A stretch of DNA of 64,000 bases. It comes from an uncultured Clostridia bacterium. GTDB taxonomy: Bacteria; Bacillota; Clostridia; Christensenellales; UBA1242. Under the pieces are notes generated by a model. That model did no database searches, was not told the DNA's origin, and saw nothing but the letters and a program-made list of their open reading frames with translations. Positions 12,625 to 48,524 of this stretch are shown here, in pieces. Position numbers and translations under genes: made by a program. How positions within the stretch are numbered: the first letter of the stretch is position 1; the number at the start of each line of letters is the position of its first letter. Location of the stretch: NCBI GenBank assembly GCA_944349375.1, contig CALVMV010000004.1, positions 44,178-108,177 on the forward strand, written 5' to 3'.

Positions 12625-13314
12625 TTACATTTCAAAATAATTTATTACGCCTGCTAGAATACTGTAACAAAAATTTTTTCTATATTCTTCTGTCTGTAAA
12701 AGTTTTTCTTCTTCAGGATTTGACAAAAATCCACATTCTACTAAAATAGCCGGAATGTTTGAATAATTTAAAACAAAATAATCCCCAACTGTTACATAAT
12801 CTCTAGCGCTTTCAAAACTTTTACTTAAACTATTTTGAATGCTTTTTGCAAGATTAAAGCCCTGCTCTGAACCTTTTGCATAAAAAACCTGTGCACCTTC
12901 ACTAGAAGACAAAGGAAAAGAATTCATATGCAAACTTATCACTAAATCAGCATTGCTATTATTTATAATGTTTTTTCTTTTTTCCATTTCACTTTTTTTC
13001 TTATTAGAAGCACTTTCATCATAAAGCCCATCCATTGTGCTTCTTGTTAAAACAACATCAAACCCAAATTGCTCACAAGCTTCTTTTAGGCATAGTGCAT
13101 ATTGTAAATTTAATACACTTTCACTAATCCCTGTAGTTTTCCCAACAGCCCCTCCATCTCGACCACCATGCCCCGCGTCAATGACAATAGAGTATTCTGG
13201 TTTTGGTGATGCTGTCGCCTTAACTGCAAAGCAAGCCCCCACCACCGAACAAATCAAAATTATACTTACTAAAATAACACACAACGTCCGCTTTTTTATT
13301 GTTAAGAATTTCAT
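12625..13314 (-). CDS. cwlD: N-acetylmuramoyl-L-alanine amidase, CwlD-like (Amidase_3), membrane-anchored
   Basis: N-terminal hydrophobic anchor, VIDAGHGGRDGGAVG, LVISLHMNS, and LVECGFLSNPEE. See the finding on the chimeric 5' end. Confidence 0.8.
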   Translation of the reverse strand: MKFLTIKKRTLCVILVSIILICSVVGACFAVKATASPKPEYSIVIDAGHGGRDGGAVGKTTGISESVLNLQYALCLKEACEQFGFDVVLTRSTMDGLYDESASNKKKSEMEKRKNIINNSNADLVISLHMNSFPLSSSEGAQVFYAKGSEQGFNLAKSIQNSLSKSFESARDYVTVGDYFVLNYSNIPAILVECGFLSNPEEEKLLQTEEYRKNFCYSILAGVINYFEM

Positions 13315-17399: not shown

Positions 17400-17576
17400 T
17401 TACTGTCCTAACTTGACATCTACTCCGCCGTACCCAGCGTCAATCACAATGGTATGCACCGCCTTCGGCGAACTTGTCGCTTTAACCACATAGCAAACAC
17501 CGACAATTAAACAGATTGCAACTAGAACAACCAAAAGAATGGCACAATGCGTCTTTTTTATTGTTAAGAATTTCAT
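17400..17576 (-). pseudogene. Displaced cwlD 5' fragment 1 (58 codons)
   Basis: Translation MKFLTIKKRHCAILLVVLVAICLIVGVCYVVKATSSPKAVHTIVIDAGYGGVDVKLGQ*. It parallels intact CwlD up to GG-x-D and then diverges into the junction string. The Zn-ligand His is replaced by Tyr. Confidence 0.7.
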
Positions 17577-18643: not shown

Positions 18644-18826
18644 TCAAAAAATTTCATACTGTCCTAACTTGACATCAACTCCACCATGCCCTGCATCTAT
18701 TACTATTGTAAATTCTGCTTTTGGCATACTATTTGTGTAAACGCTGGCAAAAGAAAATAAAATTGACAGCCCTACAATAACAGAAATAATTATTAATACA
18801 CTTTTCTTTTTTATAATAAAAAACAT
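18644..18826 (-). pseudogene. Displaced cwlD 5' fragment 2 (probably the native 5' end)
   Basis: Translation MFFIIKKKSVLIIISVIVGLSILFSFASVYTNSMPKAEFTIVIDAGHGGVDVKLGQYEIF*. The break point and junction string are the same as in fragment 1. Confidence 0.7.
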
Positions 18827-18961
18827 TTCAACTCCTACTTAAATATTTTATTAGTGAAAATTAGAAAATAAGACAAAAATTGATATTAATTTAATTTTAA
18901 TAGTTCTTAATTTTTCAGAAAAAAATATTTTAAAAATGCTGTATTTTTAAAAAATGTTTAA

Positions 18962-19016
18962 TTATCCACAGAGTTATCCACATTTTATCCACATTCTTGA
19001 ATAAAAATGTGGATAA
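18962..19016. promoter_or_regulatory. Cluster of four perfect DnaA boxes
   Basis: TTATCCACA at 18962-18970, 18974-18982 and 18985-18993, and the inverted TGTGGATAA at 19008-19016. Confidence 0.8.
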
Positions 19017-19067
19017 CTTTATTTTTGTTTTCTTGACAAAAATATTGTTTTGATTAATAATTATCTT

Positions 19068-19694
19068 ATGAGAATTTTTCTTTTCCTTTTATCACTGTTC
19101 TGCTGTTTGACATTATTTCAAAGCCAAAATAATGTTATCGCTTCGGACTCGAATATTGAACTTGAAGTAATTGCTACTGAATGTTTCTTATATGAAGAAG
19201 CTTCTTTTGAAAGTGAAAAAGTCCTAGAGAATGAAAAGCCTTTTTCTTTAATCTTAGGCGATAAATTAAGTCTTGTTAAGATTGGCGAAAAATTCTATCT
19301 TGTTGAAACAGAAAATGGAACAAAAGGTTATGTTTATAAATATTATGTTTGTGAAAAAAACGAGTTTTATATTTACCCTACTTTTAATGCTACCATAAGA
19401 ACAGATGATGCAATAATATACGATGTTAATAAAAAACCAACGACTCATACTGCCTATTCGGGACAAAAAGTTTATTTATATGAAGGGTATAGCTCTAATG
19501 ATTTTACAGCTGTTCAAATTGTTTTAGAAGATGGTTCTTTATATAACGGATATATGATGACAAAAGATATCGAACCTTCTGGTATAAGTTCAACCTTAAT
19601 TATCGGAATTTCGATTATTGCTGCAGTAGTTACAATTGTTCTATCTTTAGTATTCATCAAAAAGAAAAAGAAAACTTCTGGCAGTAAAGTTTGA
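19068..19694 (+). CDS. Secreted, C-terminally membrane-anchored protein with SH3-like repeats
   Basis: Signal peptide MRIFLFLLSLFCCLTLF, two segments resembling bacterial SH3 (…GTKGYVYKYYV, …GSLYNGYMMTKDI), and a C-terminal TM followed by KKKKK. TTGACA at 19033-19038 lies upstream. The start (19050 versus 19068) is uncertain and no clear RBS is present. Confidence 0.55.
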   Translation: MRIFLFLLSLFCCLTLFQSQNNVIASDSNIELEVIATECFLYEEASFESEKVLENEKPFSLILGDKLSLVKIGEKFYLVETENGTKGYVYKYYVCEKNEFYIYPTFNATIRTDDAIIYDVNKKPTTHTAYSGQKVYLYEGYSSNDFTAVQIVLEDGSLYNGYMMTKDIEPSGISSTLIIGISIIAAVVTIVLSLVFIKKKKKTSGSKV

Positions 19695-19740
19695 TTTCAC
19701 ACAATCTTCTTTTTAAAATTTGTAAAAAGGAGATTTTTTT

Positions 19741-20817
19741 ATGAATATTAACGACTTATTTGATGACTTAGAAAAATTAAAAAAAGAAGTGTGGTATCTT
19801 ATAAAAAAGGTAATCCCTAAAATAGAAGAAACAATTGAAAATTCTGCTCTAGGTGATATTTCAAATATAAAAAATCAGCTTTCCCAATGCTTAGAAGAAA
19901 TCGATGGTATAAAAACAGATATCTCAACTTTAACAAATTCAACAAACAATGTTACCTTAAAAGTGTCAGAGCTTGAATCTTCTTTTTCCAATCTTTCAAA
20001 CACTTTAAACTCATTGTCTTCAACAATCTCTTCTTTAAGCGAAATGACAGACAATCATTCTCAACAACTAGATTCTATAAATTCAGAAGTTTCTTCTTTA
20101 AAAAGTTCTTATGAAAACATTTCTCCCCAAATTGATCTACTAAATTCGATAGTTAACAAACACTCAGAAAATATTTTATCTTTAACCACTACTGTTGGTC
20201 AAGCAAAATCTCTTGCGACTGAAGCGAAAAGCGCAACTGAGAATTTTAGCACGAATTTGACTATGGTTTCTAATTCTGTTGCAAACAATACATCAAAAAT
20301 TAATGAATTAGAAAGTTCTTGTAGTTCCATAAACAACTCTATTTCTTCCATAAATTCTTCTATAAGCGCACTTTCAGATTCTCTATCTTCCTTAGAAACA
20401 GATGTGAATAATCTTAAAACTGAAAATTGCACTGTTATTTATGATATGTCAAGTGAAGATAGCTCTATTAATCTAGGTTTTACGACAGGTATGACGGGAA
20501 CAAAATATATAAGTCATGATTTTTCACAATACCACACTATAAGAATTTATGCAAGACTTTATGCTTCAAACTGTGTTCAAGAAATTCCTGTTAAAAATAG
20601 AAAAGTAGCGCAATCTGCGATGATTGTAACAGGAAGCAACCCAATCATTATTAGTTCTTTAAATATTTTATTTACTATTGAGCCTTTATTAAACAGATTA
20701 CAAGTAGGTGCTTACGGGAAATATACTTTCTCAAGTGCTACTGGTACATTTACTTTAGAAAGTGGTTCTAGCAATACTAACTTCTATGTTTATAGAGTTG
20801 AAGGTATAAAAAAATAA
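19741..20817 (+). CDS. Coiled-coil protein with a C-terminal globular domain (phage tail-fibre-like architecture)
   Basis: About 220 aa of Ser/Leu/Asn-rich repeat-like sequence (…SELESSFSNLSNTLNSLSSTISSLSE…), then a beta-rich tail of about 130 aa. No signal peptide. The RBS is AAAGGAG. Confidence 0.5.
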   Translation: MNINDLFDDLEKLKKEVWYLIKKVIPKIEETIENSALGDISNIKNQLSQCLEEIDGIKTDISTLTNSTNNVTLKVSELESSFSNLSNTLNSLSSTISSLSEMTDNHSQQLDSINSEVSSLKSSYENISPQIDLLNSIVNKHSENILSLTTTVGQAKSLATEAKSATENFSTNLTMVSNSVANNTSKINELESSCSSINNSISSINSSISALSDSLSSLETDVNNLKTENCTVIYDMSSEDSSINLGFTTGMTGTKYISHDFSQYHTIRIYARLYASNCVQEIPVKNRKVAQSAMIVTGSNPIIISSLNILFTIEPLLNRLQVGAYGKYTFSSATGTFTLESGSSNTNFYVYRVEGIKK

Positions 20818-32598: not shown

Positions 32599-34470
32599 AT
32601 GAAAGACTTTGATGCTATTGTAATTGGTGCTGGACATGCTGGCTGTGAAGCCGCTTTGGCTTTAGCACGAACTGGAAACAAAACATTGTTATTATCACTG
32701 AATTTAGATTCAGTGGCTTTTTTAGCATGCAATCCTTCAATTGGGGGAACTGCAAAAGGTCAATTAGTTTGTGAAATTGATGCTCTTGGTGGAGAAATGG
32801 GTATTAATACAGATAAAACATTAATACAACTGCGAATGTTAAATCAAGGCAAGGGCCCAGCAGTTCAAAGTTTAAGAGCTCAAGCCGACAAAATTGAATA
32901 TCACAACCAAATGAAAAAAACTCTTGAAAACACCGAAAACTTGTTTTTAAGACAAGGCGAAGCTGTTGAGATTATAGAAAACAATGATGGAACAAAAACT
33001 GTAAAACTTGCTGTTGGTAAAGATGTTAATGCTAAAGTAATTGTTTTTGCAACAGGAGTATATTTAAAGAGTAGAATCATAATTGGAGATTATACTAAAG
33101 AAGTTGGTCCTAACGGTTTTTCTAATGCAGAAAAATTATCTGACAGTTTAAAAAATCTTGGAATAAAATTATTGAGATTTAAAACAGGCACTCCTGCCAG
33201 GGTAAATGGAAGAAGTGTGGATTTTTCAAAACTTGAAGTTCAATGTGGAGAAGATAATATACAGAATTTTTCTTTTATGACAAAGTCGAAACCAAACAAT
33301 AAAGCTGTTTGTTATTTGACATATACAAACCAAAACACTCACGATATCATAAAAGAGAACTTAGATAAAGCTCCAGTATTTTCTGGACTTATTAAAGGGG
33401 TTGGTCCGAGATATTGTCCTTCTATTGAAACAAAAATTGTTAGATTTGCTGACAAAGAAAGACACCAACTTTTCTTAGAACCTGAAAGTCTTTCAACAAA
33501 TGAAATTTATATTCAAGGCTTTTCAACTTCTATGCCTGTTGATGTTCAAGAAAAAATGATACATTCGGTAAAAGGACTAGAAAACGCCGAAATAATGAGA
33601 GATAGTTATGCTATAGAATACGATTGTATTGAACCAACACAACTTTTGCCTACCCTTGAATTGAAAAATCATAAAGGGCTATTTTTTGCAGGTCAGATAA
33701 ATGGAACTTCTGGTTATGAAGAGGCGGCGGCACAAGGAATTATTGCTGGTATAAACGCAAGCCTATATTTGCAAAATAAAGAACAATTAGTTTTAAAAAG
33801 AAGTGATGGCTATATCGGAGTTTTAATTGATGATATTGTAACTAAAGGGACAAATGAGCCTTACAGAATGATGACTTCTAGAGCTGAATATAGATTGTTT
33901 TTAAGATCTGATAACGCAGATTTAAGACTAACTGAAATTGGAAGAAAAGTAGGTTTAGTTTCAGATGAAAGGTGGAAAATTTATAACGACAAAAAAGAAA
34001 AATTATCAGAAATTTTTAACCTTTTAAATACAAAATATAAATTATCAGAAATTAAAGATTTCTATATTGAAAATGGAGAAAATCCTCCTAAAGAAAGTGT
34101 TACTGTAAAAGATATGCTTAAAAGAAGCAATATTGATGCTTTTAAGATTAATAATCGTTTTAAAATTTTTGAAAATTTCGACTATGAAATAATCAATGAA
34201 ATGAACATAATGGTTAAATATGAAGGTTATTTAAAACAACAGGAAGAAGAGATAGAAAAATTTAAAAAGAACGAAAAGATTATAATACCTGAAAATTTTG
34301 ATTATAGAAAATATCATGGTTTAAGAATAGAAGCTGTTGAAAAACTAGAACAAATAAAACCTTTAAACATTGGACAGGCATCAAGAGTTTCTGGTGTATC
34401 CCCTGCTGACATTGCAGTATTAAGTGTTTTGGTAAAAAAATTTAGCAAAGAAAATATTGATAACAAATAA
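32599..34470 (+). CDS. mnmG: tRNA uridine 5-carboxymethylaminomethyl modification enzyme MnmG (GidA)
   Basis: FDAIVIGAGHAGCEAALALAR FAD motif. The 623-aa length and GidA-typical blocks (GPRYCPSIE, FFAGQINGTSGYEEAA) fit. Confidence 0.95.
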   Translation: MKDFDAIVIGAGHAGCEAALALARTGNKTLLLSLNLDSVAFLACNPSIGGTAKGQLVCEIDALGGEMGINTDKTLIQLRMLNQGKGPAVQSLRAQADKIEYHNQMKKTLENTENLFLRQGEAVEIIENNDGTKTVKLAVGKDVNAKVIVFATGVYLKSRIIIGDYTKEVGPNGFSNAEKLSDSLKNLGIKLLRFKTGTPARVNGRSVDFSKLEVQCGEDNIQNFSFMTKSKPNNKAVCYLTYTNQNTHDIIKENLDKAPVFSGLIKGVGPRYCPSIETKIVRFADKERHQLFLEPESLSTNEIYIQGFSTSMPVDVQEKMIHSVKGLENAEIMRDSYAIEYDCIEPTQLLPTLELKNHKGLFFAGQINGTSGYEEAAAQGIIAGINASLYLQNKEQLVLKRSDGYIGVLIDDIVTKGTNEPYRMMTSRAEYRLFLRSDNADLRLTEIGRKVGLVSDERWKIYNDKKEKLSEIFNLLNTKYKLSEIKDFYIENGENPPKESVTVKDMLKRSNIDAFKINNRFKIFENFDYEIINEMNIMVKYEGYLKQQEEEIEKFKKNEKIIIPENFDYRKYHGLRIEAVEKLEQIKPLNIGQASRVSGVSPADIAVLSVLVKKFSKENIDNK

Positions 34471-34519
34471 TTTTGGTTTACAAAAATTTTATGATATATA
34501 AAAGGTTTGAAAACACACT

Positions 34520-35230
34520 ATGATAAATAATGAAAATTTTATATCTGATATCTTTAATAAATACAATATTAACTTGTCAAAAGAACAAGTTGATAAGTTT
34601 TTGTTATATTATAATTTTTTAATTGAAGAAAATGAAAAATATAATCTAACAGCAATAACAGGTTTTGAAGATGTAGTTTTTAAACATTTTTTAGATAGTT
34701 GTTTGCCCTATCTTTATCTTAAAAAAGATTCAACTGTTATAGATGTTGGCTCTGGTGCTGGCTTTCCTGGTGTTCCTTTAAAAATTATAAGACCTGACTT
34801 GAAAATAACTTTATTGGACTCTTTAAATAAAAGGGTTAAATTTTTAAATCAATTAATTTTAAAATTAAATCTAAAAGATATAAAAGCAATTCATTTTAGA
34901 GTTGAAGATTTTGCTAAAACAAACAGAGAAAAATTTGATTATGCCCTTTCTAGAGCTGTCGCTCAAGTATCAACTTTAAGTGAATACCTTCTGCCTTTAG
35001 TAAAAGTTAAAGGTTTTGTTTTGATGTATAAATCTCAAAAACTTGAAGAAGAACTAGTTTCTGGTAAAAAAGCTATAAACATATTGGGTGGAAAAATTAA
35101 ATCTTGCAATGATTTTCAAATCAAAGAAATTGAATCAGATAGAAAAATCTTAGTTATAGAAAAAATAAAAAACTCACCTTTAATATATCCTAGAGGGAAA
35201 AATTTACCAAAAACTCAACCTTTACACTAA
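34520..35230 (+). CDS. rsmG: 16S rRNA (guanine527-N7)-methyltransferase RsmG (GidB)
   Basis: The DVGSGAGFPGVPLKI SAM motif is present. It lies downstream of mnmG. Confidence 0.9.
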   Translation: MINNENFISDIFNKYNINLSKEQVDKFLLYYNFLIEENEKYNLTAITGFEDVVFKHFLDSCLPYLYLKKDSTVIDVGSGAGFPGVPLKIIRPDLKITLLDSLNKRVKFLNQLILKLNLKDIKAIHFRVEDFAKTNREKFDYALSRAVAQVSTLSEYLLPLVKVKGFVLMYKSQKLEEELVSGKKAINILGGKIKSCNDFQIKEIESDRKILVIEKIKNSPLIYPRGKNLPKTQPLH

Positions 35231-35242
35231 AGTCAATATAGG

Positions 35243-35271
35243 TTGACAAAAATTAATAAAAATCTTATAAT
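35243..35271 (+). promoter_or_regulatory. Consensus sigma-A promoter upstream of dnaA
   Basis: TTGACA (35243-35248), 17-nt spacer, TATAAT (35266-35271). Confidence 0.6.
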
Positions 35272-35290
35272 CTTTTCAAAGGGGAAAAAT

Positions 35291-36646
35291 ATGCAAGACT
35301 TAACATCTTTATGGCAAGCAGTTTTAGATAAACTTGAACTTAATGTTTCAAATGTTTCTTTTATAATGTGGTTCAAACCATTAAAAGTTTTAGATTATTC
35401 TGAAGAAAATAAAAAAATTGTTATTTCTACAAACTCTACATCTGCAAAAAACCAGATTATGAGAAATTATTTTGAAAAGTTATCAAACGCAATAACTGAT
35501 ATTTTTGGTCAATCAATTGAAATTGAAATTTTAGATCCAAATGAAGAAATTGAATATATAAAAAAATTTGGTGAAAAAAACATTCAAAAAGAGGTAGAAG
35601 TTTCAAAAAATCCTTTCAATTCAAAATACACTTTTGATAACTTTGTTGTAGGAAAAAGCAATCAATTTGTTTATGCTGCTGCCAGAGCAGTTGCTGAGCA
35701 TCCAGGAGAAAAATTTAATCCTTTGTTTATTTATGGTGGTGTAGGGCTTGGAAAAACTCACCTTTTGCACGCAATTGGCAATTATTTGCATGAATTTAAT
35801 CCAAATTTAAAAGTAATGTATGTTACTTGTGAACAATTTGCAAATGATTATATTGAAAGTTTAGGTTCAAACACAAAAAATAAAGCTATTTTAGAGTTTA
35901 GAACAAAATACAGAAATTTAGATGTTTTAATGGTTGATGATATACAATTTATTTCTAAAAAGACTTCTACTCAAGAAGAATTTTTCCATACTTTTAATGA
36001 ATTATTCCAAAATAATAAACAAATTATAATTTCTTCTGACCGTCCACCAAAAGATATTGAAACCCTTGCAGATAGATTGCGCTCTAGATTTACTTGTGGA
36101 CTTATTCAAGATATACAATCTCCAGATTTAGAAACACGAATTGCTATTTTAAGAAAAAAATGTCAATTAGAAAAATATGTTATTGATGATGATGTAATTG
36201 ATTATATTGCTGAAAATATAAATACAAATATAAGAGAACTTGAAGGTATGCTTTCAAAAGTTTATTTTTTGGCTACTTTAATAGGCAAACGCTCTGCTTC
36301 TATGGATGAAGCAAGAGAAGCTTTTAACGGACAAATAGAAGAAGAAAAAAATGAAGGCTTAACACCAGAACAAATCATATCTACAGTGTGTCAATATTTT
36401 GATATATCTAAAGAAGATATAGTTGGTAAAAAGAAATCAAAAGAAGTTGTTGAACCAAGAATGATAGCTATTTATCTTATAAGTGAAATACTGGAAATAC
36501 CTCTTGTTTCTATAGGAAAATTGTTTGGTGGCAGAGATCACACAACTATTATGCACTCAAGAGATAAAATATCTGATGGACTAAAAACTTCTCATAAAAT
36601 TCAGTCCTTTGTTAGCGAAATAAAGAAGATGTTAACAAGTGGATAA
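35291..36646 (+). CDS. dnaA: Chromosomal replication initiator protein DnaA
   Basis: GGVGLGKTHLLHAIGN Walker A, MVDDIQF, and the domain IV motif GGRDHTTIMHS. Start set to the ATG at 35291 (MQDLTSLWQ) after AAAGGGGA. Confidence 0.95.
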   Translation: MQDLTSLWQAVLDKLELNVSNVSFIMWFKPLKVLDYSEENKKIVISTNSTSAKNQIMRNYFEKLSNAITDIFGQSIEIEILDPNEEIEYIKKFGEKNIQKEVEVSKNPFNSKYTFDNFVVGKSNQFVYAAARAVAEHPGEKFNPLFIYGGVGLGKTHLLHAIGNYLHEFNPNLKVMYVTCEQFANDYIESLGSNTKNKAILEFRTKYRNLDVLMVDDIQFISKKTSTQEEFFHTFNELFQNNKQIIISSDRPPKDIETLADRLRSRFTCGLIQDIQSPDLETRIAILRKKCQLEKYVIDDDVIDYIAENINTNIRELEGMLSKVYFLATLIGKRSASMDEAREAFNGQIEEEKNEGLTPEQIISTVCQYFDISKEDIVGKKKSKEVVEPRMIAIYLISEILEIPLVSIGKLFGGRDHTTIMHSRDKISDGLKTSHKIQSFVSEIKKMLTSG

Positions 36647-36800
36647 CTTGAAAATTATATCCACAACTTGTCCACATTAAAACAATCTAAATAATCTACA
36701 AAAAAAATTTTTTCGACAAAAAACATACTATATATAGTATCACAAAAAAGTTATCCACATTTAAACATTGCTTATTAAAATTATTATTATTTAATCAAAA
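36638..36800. promoter_or_regulatory. Candidate oriC (DnaA boxes plus an AT-rich unwinding region) in the dnaA-dnaN spacer
   Basis: Boxes: AGTGGATAA 36638-36646, ATATCCACA 36657-36665, TTGTCCACA 36668-36676, and a perfect TTATCCACA at 36751-36759. A 16-nt palindrome ATACTATATATAGTAT lies at 36725-36740 and (ATT)4 at 36780-36791. Almost pure A/T sequence follows. Confidence 0.7.
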
Positions 36801-36928
36801 AAATAATAAATAAGATATCTAAAAAATGGCGAGAAAATAAGGCGAAAAAATATTTTAAAAAATCGCTAAAAAATGTTGATAAAAAGTTTTAAATGTGTTA
36901 AAATTAATCTTGTTAAGGAGATTAATTT

Positions 36929-42301: not shown

Positions 42302-43639
42302 TTATTTACCTAAGCAAAATTTAGAAAATATTAAATTTATTATGTTTTCGTTTTCACATTGTCCTGTTATTTTTCCTAAACAATTCCATAAGTTTTTAAT
42401 TTGCATTGCTATAATATCCATACTTTGTTGCTTATCTTCAATTATTTTTTTACATAATTGATAACTTTCTTTTAATATAGAAGATTGTCTTTCGTTTACT
42501 ATCATTAATTTATTTAAATCTATATTTTTTGAAATAATTAAATCAAAAATTGACTGTTTAAGTTTTTCGATACCTATTTCTTCTTTTGCAGAAATAACAA
42601 TTTCATTTTTAAATGTTTGTAATTTTCTAGGACAATCTGATTTGTTTATTACGATAATATGTTTATAGTCTTTTATTTTTTTGATAATATCTTCATCATA
42701 ACTGTTTAAAGGACTAGAGCCATCTAATACACAAAGCACAATATCAGCATTCTCAATGCTTTTTTGACTTCTTTCAATTCCTATTTTTTCTACAACATCA
42801 TTTGATTCTCTAATGCCTGCAGTGTCAATAAAGTTAAATTTAATACCTTTATAAATTATTTGTTCGTTGATAATATCTCTTGTTGTTCCAGCAATATCAG
42901 TAACAATAGCTTTATCTTGCCCTACTAACGCATTTAACAAAGAACTTTTGCCAACATTAGGCGCCCCTATAATAGCTATATTAACCCCTTTGTTTACATA
43001 TTTTAAACTTTCTTCTTGATTAATAATGTTTAATAAATCATTTTTTATATTATAGATTTGATTAAATATGTTTTCTTTAGCAGATTTCTCAAAATCTTCT
43101 TCTGGATAATCCAAAGTTGCTTCAATTTGAGCAATTAAAGAAGTTAAATTATCCTGCATTTTTGTTATTTTTAGTTTAAGTTTGCCTTGTGCAAGATTTA
43201 AGTTTGCTATTAATTCACCTTCGCTTTCTGCGTTAATTTCTCCTATAATAGCTTCGGCTTCATCCAAAGATATTTTTCCGTTTTCAAAAGCTCTTTCAGA
43301 AAATTCGCCTGGATTTGCCAATTTAGCACCATTATTTATTAAAATATTTAATATTTTTTGAGATAACAAAACTCCGCCATGAACTTGAAATTCTATCATG
43401 TCTTCACCAGTGAAAGAATTGGGACCTTTAAAATAAACTAAAAAGCATTTTTCTTTGGTTTGTTGATTCAAAAAAAAGGAACCCAAATACAATTTATTTG
43501 GTTCTATGTTTTTATAATCTAGTTTCGAAGAAGAAAAAACTTTTTTAGCAATATCTAAAGATCTTTCTCCGCTCATTCTTATAATGCTGATAGCACCTCT
43601 ACCTAAAGGCGTTGAGATTGCGACTATTGTATTTTCCAT
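42302..43639 (-). CDS. mnmE: tRNA modification GTPase MnmE (TrmE)
   Basis: MENTIVAISTPLGRGAISIIRMSG, G1 motif GAPNVGKSSLLNAL, DTAGIR, and the C-terminal FCLGK. Start set to the ATG at 43639. Confidence 0.9.
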   Translation of the reverse strand: MENTIVAISTPLGRGAISIIRMSGERSLDIAKKVFSSSKLDYKNIEPNKLYLGSFFLNQQTKEKCFLVYFKGPNSFTGEDMIEFQVHGGVLLSQKILNILINNGAKLANPGEFSERAFENGKISLDEAEAIIGEINAESEGELIANLNLAQGKLKLKITKMQDNLTSLIAQIEATLDYPEEDFEKSAKENIFNQIYNIKNDLLNIINQEESLKYVNKGVNIAIIGAPNVGKSSLLNALVGQDKAIVTDIAGTTRDIINEQIIYKGIKFNFIDTAGIRESNDVVEKIGIERSQKSIENADIVLCVLDGSSPLNSYDEDIIKKIKDYKHIIVINKSDCPRKLQTFKNEIVISAKEEIGIEKLKQSIFDLIISKNIDLNKLMIVNERQSSILKESYQLCKKIIEDKQQSMDIIAMQIKNLWNCLGKITGQCENENIINLIFSKFCLGK

Positions 43640-47450: not shown

Positions 47451-48524
47451 ATGAAAATAAAAAGTTTAAAATTGACAAATATAAGGTCTTATTCAAATGC
47501 TTTTTTTGAATTTGAAGACAATTTAAATGTATTAGTTGGAGAAAATGCTCAAGGGAAAACTAATGTTCTTGAGGCTATTTTTTATTCAGTAATAGGAAAA
47601 AGCTTTAGAACAAATAGAGAAAAAGATTTAATTTTATGGGGATCAGATATAGGTAAAATAGAAGCTTTGTTTGATAATAATTATAGAGATATTAAAATTG
47701 AAATTATTATTAAAAAGGAAGGGAAGAAAGTTGTACTAGTCGATGGAGTGTGTTTGCATAAACTTGGAGAATTATTAGGAAGAACAAATGCTGTATTTTT
47801 TTCTCCTAATGAATTAAAATTAGTAAAAGAAAGTCCTGATGATAGAAGAAAATTTTTAAATATTGCTATTTCACAAACAAATAAAAGATATTTTTATTTA
47901 TTAAGTCGTTATGACAAGGTTTTGGCAAATAGAAATAAGTTATTAAAATCTACTCATGATCTTAATGTTATAAGAGAGACTATAGATATTTGGGATAGAT
48001 CTTTATGCGAAATTGCAGAGAAAATATTCTTAGAAAGAAAAAAGTTTGTAGAAGAATTAACTCCTTTTGCCGAAAAAGCTCACGAATATCTTTCTAATAA
48101 CAAAGAAATATTAAAAATTGAGTATAAAAGCGATTTTAAAGAAAATTATAAACAAAATATGCTTAAGGCTCTGCAAAAAAATTTTGAAAAAGATTATAAA
48201 TTAGGTTTTACAAGTGTAGGAGTTCATAGAGATGATTTAAATCTTTTTATAAATGACAAAGAAGTTAAAATTTTTGGCTCTCAAGGTCAGCAAAGGACTG
48301 TTGCACTTTCATTGAAGTTAGCCGAACTTGAATGCAATAAAAACAGAATTGGTCAATATCCAATTTTATTGTTAGATGATGTTTTTAGTGAATTAGATGA
48401 AAATAGGAGGAATAAATTACTAAATTTTACTAAAAAAGCACAAACAATATTAACAACGACTGATATAAATGAAAAAATAAAAGCAAAAATATTTAAAATT
48501 AAAAAAATAATTAAAAATTATTAA
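47451..48524 (+). CDS. recF: DNA replication and repair protein RecF
   Basis: LKLTNIRSYSN...VLVGENAQGKTNVLEAI and the C-terminal LLLDDVFSELD. Confidence 0.9.
   Translation: MKIKSLKLTNIRSYSNAFFEFEDNLNVLVGENAQGKTNVLEAIFYSVIGKSFRTNREKDLILWGSDIGKIEALFDNNYRDIKIEIIIKKEGKKVVLVDGVCLHKLGELLGRTNAVFFSPNELKLVKESPDDRRKFLNIAISQTNKRYFYLLSRYDKVLANRNKLLKSTHDLNVIRETIDIWDRSLCEIAEKIFLERKKFVEELTPFAEKAHEYLSNNKEILKIEYKSDFKENYKQNMLKALQKNFEKDYKLGFTSVGVHRDDLNLFINDKEVKIFGSQGQQRTVALSLKLAELECNKNRIGQYPILLLDDVFSELDENRRNKLLNFTKKAQTILTTTDINEKIKAKIFKIKKIIKNY

Follow-up and report, generated by a model that had tools for sequence, protein, structure and literature searches.

The window analysed here is a stretch of 64,000 nucleotides (G000:C4:44178-108177) from an assembly of 942 kb in 15 contigs that is about 80% complete. 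The intergenic region 18827-19067 of this window separates a fragment of the amidase gene cwlD from a two-gene operon that is transcribed away from it, and it holds four perfect DnaA boxes followed by a sigma-A-type promoter. The features of the locus are as follows, with positions counted from the first letter of the window:

18644-18826, minus strand: displaced native cwlD 5' fragment, recognised by its translation with IVIDAGHGG and given as context only
18962-18970, plus strand: DnaA box 1, TTATCCACA, exact match, at -106 to -98 from the inferred transcription start
18974-18982, plus strand: DnaA box 2, TTATCCACA, exact match, starting 12 nt past box 1
18985-18993, plus strand: DnaA box 3, TTATCCACA, exact match, starting 11 nt past box 2
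18994-19007, no strand: spacer between box 3 and box 4, the sequence of which drifts while its length is held
19008-19016, minus strand: DnaA box 4, inverted, reading TGTGGATAA on the plus strand, exact match, at -60 to -52
19017-19032, plus strand: T-rich linker from box 4 to the -35 hexamer
19033-19061, plus strand: sigma-A-type promoter TTGACA-N17-AATAAT, 11 of 12 matches in a consensus scan
19068-19694, plus strand: gene of a predicted membrane-anchored tandem-SH3b protein of 208 aa (AlphaFold model, Foldseek)
19741-20817, plus strand: second gene of the operon, encoding a coiled-coil protein of 358 aa, the C-terminal domain of which is beta-rich

The box cluster, the promoter and the flanking genes

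An exact search of the window for the perfect DnaA box TTATCCACA returned starts at 18962, 18974 and 18985 on the plus strand and at 19008 on the minus strand, which agrees with the three direct boxes, 12 and 11 nt apart, and the one inverted box described in the sequence-only reading. The centre-to-centre distances are 12, 11 and 23 bp, and the 11-nt unit TTATCCACATT is perfectly duplicated in tandem across boxes 2 and 3. The one remaining perfect box of the window is found at 36751 in the dnaA-dnaN spacer. Five perfect boxes in the window stand against 0.66 expected, at least five were reached in 0 of 100 dinucleotide-preserving shuffles, and the chance of finding four boxes within 55 bp is, by a rough Poisson calculation, about 3e-9. 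The entire 942-kb assembly contains 20 perfect boxes, four of them in the cluster. With boxes scored within 300 bp, the cluster tops the assembly (score 8), followed by the dnaA-dnaN spacer and by the spacer upstream of hisS on a different contig, a ranking that may be incomplete because the assembly is only about 80% complete. That the cluster is denser than the dnaA-dnaN spacer, as had been claimed, is borne out by the content of the latter, i.e., one perfect and four one-mismatch boxes. The AT-rich setting was likewise confirmed, with a GC content of 17.8% for the intergenic region compared to 28.5% for the window. The distance to dnaA/oriC, given before as about 17 kb, was measured as 16.3 kb to the dnaA start, with about 15 genes in between, and as 17.8 kb to the perfect box of the dnaA-dnaN spacer. 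An Rfam scan of the window returned two tRNAs only and no match at the cluster.

Domain IV of the DnaA encoded at 35243-36646 was aligned with the DNA-bound domain IV of E. coli (1j1v) and with B. subtilis DnaA (8btg). The base-contact motif GGRDHTT..H, which we take to hold the base-contacting residues D433, H434, T435 and H439 (1j1v), is intact; in E. coli numbering, K stands in the place of R399, and P423 is left unaligned. As the motif is kept and the dnaA-dnaN spacers of relatives carry perfect TTATCCACA pairs, the DnaA of the genus is expected to read TTATCCACA.

The TTGACA at 19033-19038, proposed from the letters to be a -35 element, belongs to a promoter with 11 of 12 consensus matches, the -10 hexamer of which occupies 19056-19061. 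Counted from the inferred start the cluster spans -106 to -52, clear of the core promoter. The SH3b gene begins with an ATG at 19068 that follows the -10 hexamer after only 6 nt and is not preceded by a Shine-Dalgarno sequence, and the mRNA of this gene is, as judged from this arrangement, probably leaderless. The AlphaFold model of its 208-aa product (alignment-based, pLDDT 82.7) comprises an N-terminal hydrophobic helix, two SH3-like beta domains, a C-terminal transmembrane helix and a poly-Lys tail. In Foldseek searches the model matched the SH3b pairs of NlpC/P60 peptidases (3npf, 4r0k), YrvJ and the domains by which the phage endolysin Psm (4krt) binds the cell wall. Pfam and NCBIfam yielded sub-threshold SH3 matches only, with a weak Pfam SH3_3 match, so that the fold search was needed for the SH3b identity. 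According to the model, the product is a membrane-anchored tandem-SH3b protein without a catalytic domain, which probably binds peptidoglycan. The second gene starts 46 nt after the SH3b gene with an aaaGGAG Shine-Dalgarno sequence, no terminator was found between the two genes, and the family matches of its product are of the coiled-coil type only; the gene is syntenic in all examined relatives. The operon (19068-20817) lies on the plus strand in the left replichore and is thus head-on to replication, and most of its neighbours are co-directional with replication (origin at about 31.8-36.9 kb).

On the other side of the cluster, the fragment at 18644-18826 encodes 60 CwlD-like residues including the amidase motif IVIDAGHGG and then runs into a stop codon. 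This minus-strand fragment is the displaced native 5' end of the gene, in line with the orphaned native cwlD promoter that the sequence-only reading placed on this side. A further such fragment is present at 17400-17576, and an intact cwlD at 12625-13314. In the metagenome contig L065, the SH3 protein of which is 89% identical, an uninterrupted cwlD of 227 aa is divergent from the SH3 gene over 240 nt, with the box cluster in between. The native order is therefore cwlD, boxes and SH3 gene, the two genes being transcribed divergently. A second promoter-like site with 11 of 12 matches, TTGACA-N16-AATAAT (18763-18790, plus strand), lies antisense in the cwlD fragment and points at the box cluster; such a match could have arisen by chance.

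Conservation of the cluster in the genus

The genus set consisted of 154 species genomes of 0.6-1.5 Mb. The pattern of box 2, box 3, spacer and box 4 was found in nine of these genomes and, in a reverse-read control, in none. Eight genomes encode a DnaA at least 90% identical to that of G000, and seven of them are among the nine carriers of the pattern. The eighth, G137, was fetched via its SH3 protein and has the module with one box changed to TTGTCCACA. Every one of the nine species that reach 90% DnaA identity, a set drawn up without reference to the boxes, has the module. G041 is the tenth carrier; its DnaA is only 83% identical, and five genomes at 83-86% are without the module. Three metagenome contigs that were fetched by protein identity alone carry it as well. 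The mean pairwise identities among the 13 carriers (10 species and 3 metagenome contigs) are as follows:

Four boxes: 0.96-1.00
-35 hexamer: 1.00
-10 hexamer: about 0.9
Linker between box 4 and the -35 hexamer: 0.72
Spacer between box 3 and box 4: 0.57
Promoter spacer: 0.57
60 nt upstream of box 1: 0.40

Spacers overall reach a pairwise identity of 0.52-0.59, and the same contrast in conservation was seen in six sequences that were not chosen on boxes. Box 1 is TTATCCACA in 11 of the 13 sequences and TTTTCCACA in two; box 2 and box 3 are perfect in 12 each, the exceptions being TTGTCCACA in G137 (box 2) and in the closest metagenome relative (box 3), and box 4 is invariant. All changes affect position 3 (A to T or G) and stay inside the accepted TTWTNCACA-type variation, and TTGTCCACA is also found in the oriC spacer of G000 itself. 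The gaps are 3 nt between boxes 1 and 2, 2 nt between boxes 2 and 3 and 14 nt between boxes 3 and 4 (12 nt in G041), while the distance from box 4 to the -35 hexamer is 15-16 nt in ten sequences and 31 nt in three. The promoter is present in all 13, with an invariant -35 hexamer and a -10 hexamer of the form [A/G]ATAAT. The SH3b start codon lies 6-7 nt past the -10 hexamer in 13 of 13 carriers, and other genes, such as dnaN and the next gene, have a strong GGAG. In the five genomes that have both on one contig, the cluster lies 14.2-16.6 kb from dnaA.

Among more distant genus members, 17 orthologous loci keep the cTTGACAa promoter and have no upstream boxes; the promoter is therefore older than the boxes. 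On the evidence of these alignments, purifying selection acts on the box module, which belongs to the promoter of the SH3 gene and joined that promoter when it was already in place; the module has been kept in ten species and three contigs while the spacers and the upstream DNA have diverged.

The left flank is variable, and the cluster stays within 15-31 nt of the -35 hexamer in all carriers. G000 has the cwlD remnant at this side, G024 cassette cargo and G041 about 1.1 kb of other DNA, and in the metagenome contigs L065 and L067 the cluster adjoins an uninterrupted cwlD without a cassette. Because the cluster is kept with or without an adjacent cwlD or its remnant, only the SH3 gene is a credible target. 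Regulation of cwlD is unlikely as the cause of the conservation, as the boxes are kept next to an intact cwlD, next to the 60-codon remnant and next to cassette cargo. The proposal of the sequence-only reading that the cluster resembles the DnaA-box clusters of B. subtilis or serves DnaA-dependent regulation of the flanking genes fits the findings in both of its parts, except that cwlD is not a credible target.

A DnaA-box cluster at a promoter

These observations are, in our judgement, probably best explained by a lineage-specific origin-proximal DnaA-box cluster of the DBC type that ties the promoter to DnaA and in addition acts as a DnaA sink. That the site is functional is very probable in view of its conservation. 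A subclade of the genus would have gained the boxes directly upstream of an older sigma-A-type promoter. The three head-to-tail boxes are spaced by one helical turn and the inverted box follows two turns on (23 bp), so that all four sites would lie on roughly one face of the helix, an arrangement suited to cooperative binding of DnaA. The boxes would thereby constitute a cooperative high-affinity DnaA platform from -106 to -52, and DnaA bound there would modulate the probably leaderless two-gene SH3b/coiled-coil operon. Repression or damping appears likelier than activation; a face-specific activator is less likely because the promoter is near-consensus and because the cluster is shifted by 15 nt (about 1.5 turns) in three sequences. 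Damping might be achieved by blocking of upstream contacts or by DnaA oligomers spreading toward the promoter. In this way the envelope function would be coupled to the replication status, and an occupied cluster 16 kb from oriC would withhold several DnaA molecules from the origin. As counterpoints, a near-consensus promoter may need no factor, and the 31-nt gap, which would argue against a face-specific activator, would be neutral for repression or titration.

Further DnaA-box clusters occur in the genus. The 17-mer TTATCCACATTTCCACA, a perfect DnaA box overlapping a two-mismatch box, is found twice, 95 nt apart, in G000 outside the window (C1:43455-43471 and 43550-43566; L050:1956-2067), in a 400-nt AT-rich spacer that extends from hisS to a gene for a HelD/UvrD-like helicase. 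Exact copies of it are present in 144 of the 154 genus genomes, usually as the same pair (reverse-read control 0), and the pair lies 57-72 kb from dnaA where both share a contig. As judged from this distribution, the hisS-spacer boxes are far older and more widely conserved than the promoter cluster. A third cluster family, TTATCCACAtttacacatgagTTATCCACAttTTATCCACA, is located between cls and the gene of a 194-aa protein, 30-60 kb from dnaA, in distant genus members (loci L023, L026, L029 and L031 of the genomes G076, G086, G062 and G046). It shares the core gagTTATCCACAttTTATCCACA with the promoter cluster, and G000 has no equivalent cluster. A move of the promoter cluster from the cls-linked family is not demonstrable, the boxes near cls in G000 being inside a coding-region repeat, and the shared core gagTTATCCACAttTTATCCACA may be convergent. 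The genus fits the DBC picture, with several origin-proximal clusters at lineage-specific places. The metagenome contig L066 opens with AGATGTGTATAAGAGACAG (positions 1-19), which scores as a one-mismatch DnaA box and is an artefact, presumably a Nextera transposase adapter that was not removed from the assembly.

It is possible, though rather unlikely, that the cluster serves replication control only, i.e., that it titrates or inactivates DnaA while it adjoins the promoter by coincidence and the operon is free of DnaA regulation. This would agree with the origin-proximal place that the carriers have kept at 14-17 kb from dnaA, with the other origin-proximal clusters of the genus, those near cls and in the hisS spacer, and with the spacing of box 4 and the -35 hexamer, which varies (15/16 or 31 nt) and indicates no strict phasing with RNA polymerase. 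The effect of the B. subtilis DBCs on initiation was moreover found to be separable from the expression of the neighbouring genes (Okumura et al. 2012, PMC3245932), and the clade's dnaA without upstream boxes might favour other ways of buffering DnaA. Against it, 13 of 13 clusters lie at most 31 nt from the same -35 hexamer despite repeated rearrangement on the other side. Four boxes are also few for a sink, as the strongest B. subtilis regions have 7-12 sites (PMC4447404), and deletion of single DBCs in B. subtilis had little effect on initiation (PMC3245932).

A more far-reaching version of the promoter reading, which we consider improbable, is that of a recent replication-status switch, by which DnaA would gate a leaderless envelope operon in a spore-former with a minimal genome and thereby link remodelling of the wall or the spore envelope to replication. 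The operon lies beside cwlD and 3.6 kb from spo0A, and its job would be akin to that of the DnaA-controlled Sda checkpoint in Bacillus. If true, the switch would represent the dated birth of a DnaA-box cluster at an existing promoter, either via tandem duplication of the 11-nt unit or via a copy of the origin box pair.

The cluster could finally be a leftover of mobile DNA, such as the origin or boundary of the cwlD cassettes, or a functionless tandem duplication, which we hold to be very improbable. It is situated 135 nt from the edge of the cassette-bearing cwlD region, and boxes 2 and 3 repeat an 11-nt unit exactly and in tandem. However, it is present in L065 and L067, which have no cassette, it lies outside the duplicated cwlD junctions, and its boxes are 96-100% identical compared to 40-59% for the surroundings. 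That the cluster is a part of the cwlD cassettes was rejected, as it adjoins an intact cwlD in relatives.

Relation to the origin and to known DnaA-box clusters

The cumulative GC skew traces a V along the 128-kb contig and reaches its lowest point at about 31.8 kb of the window and not at the cluster, which is 12.8 kb away. The minimum coincides with the point at which gene orientation diverges, upstream of mnmG-rsmG-dnaA-dnaN. The likely unwinding region is located downstream of dnaA:

36647-36928, plus strand: dnaA-dnaN spacer, likely oriC unwinding region, with boxes, a triplet run and AT-rich DNA

In this spacer the TTA/ATA triplet run TTATTAaaaTTATTATTATTT comes after a box and precedes AT-rich DNA; the triplet run and the AT-rich DNA after the third box of G000 read TTATCCACAtttaaacattgcTTATTAaaaTTATTATTATTT. 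The spacers of seven genus members (G000, G060, G049, G058, G137, G024 and G008) share a layout of a tandem box pair, a third box about 70 nt on, TTA/ATA triplets and AT-rich DNA. This fits the order of box, DnaA-trio and DUE that was described for the clostridial oriC2 region (PMC7561715). The tandem pair that opens the spacer (36657-36676) is perfect in G058 and G137 and degenerate in G000 (ATATCCACAacTTGTCCACA) and G024. Beside the cluster neither a DnaA-trio nor a DUE was found; box 3 is followed there by the freely varying 14-nt spacer and then by box 4.

The genes mnmG, rsmG and dnaA are contiguous on the same strand (32599-36646), dnaA following after a gap of 12 nt. The four checked genomes with a DnaA at least 90% identical (G000, G024, G130 and G137) have this order; in the other examined genus members a divergent homologue of the window gene 47451-48524 lies upstream of dnaA, which is the commoner order. 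From these two gene orders it follows that the clade rearranged beside the origin. In the clade with DnaA at least 90% identical, dnaA itself has neither an obvious promoter nor boxes. In G041 the cluster occurs along with the ancestral, commoner dnaA neighbourhood, and a tie between the gain of the cluster and the mnmG-rsmG-dnaA rearrangement was therefore rejected. The observation of the sequence-only reading that the usual box cluster upstream of dnaA is absent holds true and extends to the genus members examined, which lack it in either gene order.

The further suggestion of a bipartite oriC, in which the cluster would be a relocated or second half and cooperate with the dnaA-dnaN spacer, is the least probable of all and can be set aside. 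It could draw on the cluster being the densest consensus-box set of the assembly, on the missing box cluster upstream of dnaA and on the grammar TTATCCACA-N2-3-TTATCCACA, which is the same as at the start of the relatives' dnaA-dnaN spacer. It is contradicted by the restriction of the cluster to 10 of the 154 species, by the lack of boxes upstream of dnaA also in genus members without the cluster and with any gene order, by the ancestral dnaA neighbourhood of G041, by the lack of an adjoining conserved triplet run or AT-rich unwinding element in a neighbouring spacer that drifts, and by the GC-skew minimum. Furthermore, known bipartite origins flank dnaA (PMC7561715), and the cluster is 16 kb off. 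The cluster is a non-origin site, and the actual origin lies elsewhere. The tandem boxes of the cluster resemble those of the dnaA-dnaN spacer in the genus, i.e., TTATCCACA-(2-3 nt)-TTATCCACA including the TAG/GAG spacer, and the cluster may have arisen as a copy or as a convergent imitation of the oriC box pair. In contrast, the oriC pair leads to a third box, the TTA/ATA run and AT-rich DNA, and the cluster leads to a promoter instead.

Several known systems can be compared. In E. coli, the position of datA and DARS relative to oriC matters and their function depends on the cycle of ATP- and ADP-bound DnaA, and datA and DARS2 depend on IHF. The cluster resembles datA, DARS1 and DARS2 as a short non-origin cluster of few boxes in opposed orientations, and no sequence relationship between the cluster and datA or DARS was found. 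Among the DnaA-regulated promoters of B. subtilis, that of sda is activated and those of dnaA, ywlC, yydA, vpr and trmE are repressed. As in these, several boxes are located upstream of a sigma-A promoter and are conserved together with it, but the target genes are different and the boxes stop at -52, off the core promoter. For B. subtilis, the lack of IHF, Hda, SeqA and datA was noted in a 2026 review (PMC13220808). Outside oriC, this organism has six DBCs that are oriC-proximal and lie upstream of genes that vary from one Bacillus species to the next (PMC3245932). They regulate neighbouring genes, and deletion of all six together results in early initiation (PMC3245932, PMC4447404, PMC13220808). 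The eight strong DnaA regions of B. subtilis contain 4-12 sites (Smith and Grossman 2015, PMC4447404). The cluster shares with these DBCs the consensus boxes, the intergenic place outside oriC and near the origin, the position beside promoters and neighbouring genes that differ between species, and a dual role in regulation and in restraint of initiation would be expected. It differs in having four boxes only, all perfect and packed in 55 bp, in its likely target, a probably leaderless envelope operon unrelated to any DBC neighbour of B. subtilis, and in its host, an uncultured gut Clostridia lineage with a genome of about 1 Mb. The cluster is thus a further example of the known class of non-origin DnaA-box clusters.

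Origin-proximal DnaA-box clusters are known in Bacillus and were predicted for many Firmicutes. To our knowledge, their emergence and their targets outside model organisms are poorly documented. The locus described here offers an unusually clean case, in which an older box-free promoter can be compared with a younger four-box version and 13 sequences show which bases are constrained. The substrate of about 110 bp is suited to dissecting how DnaA acts, be it by activation, repression or titration. For the annotation of such genomes, it illustrates that a genome's origin may lie elsewhere than its strongest DnaA-box cluster.
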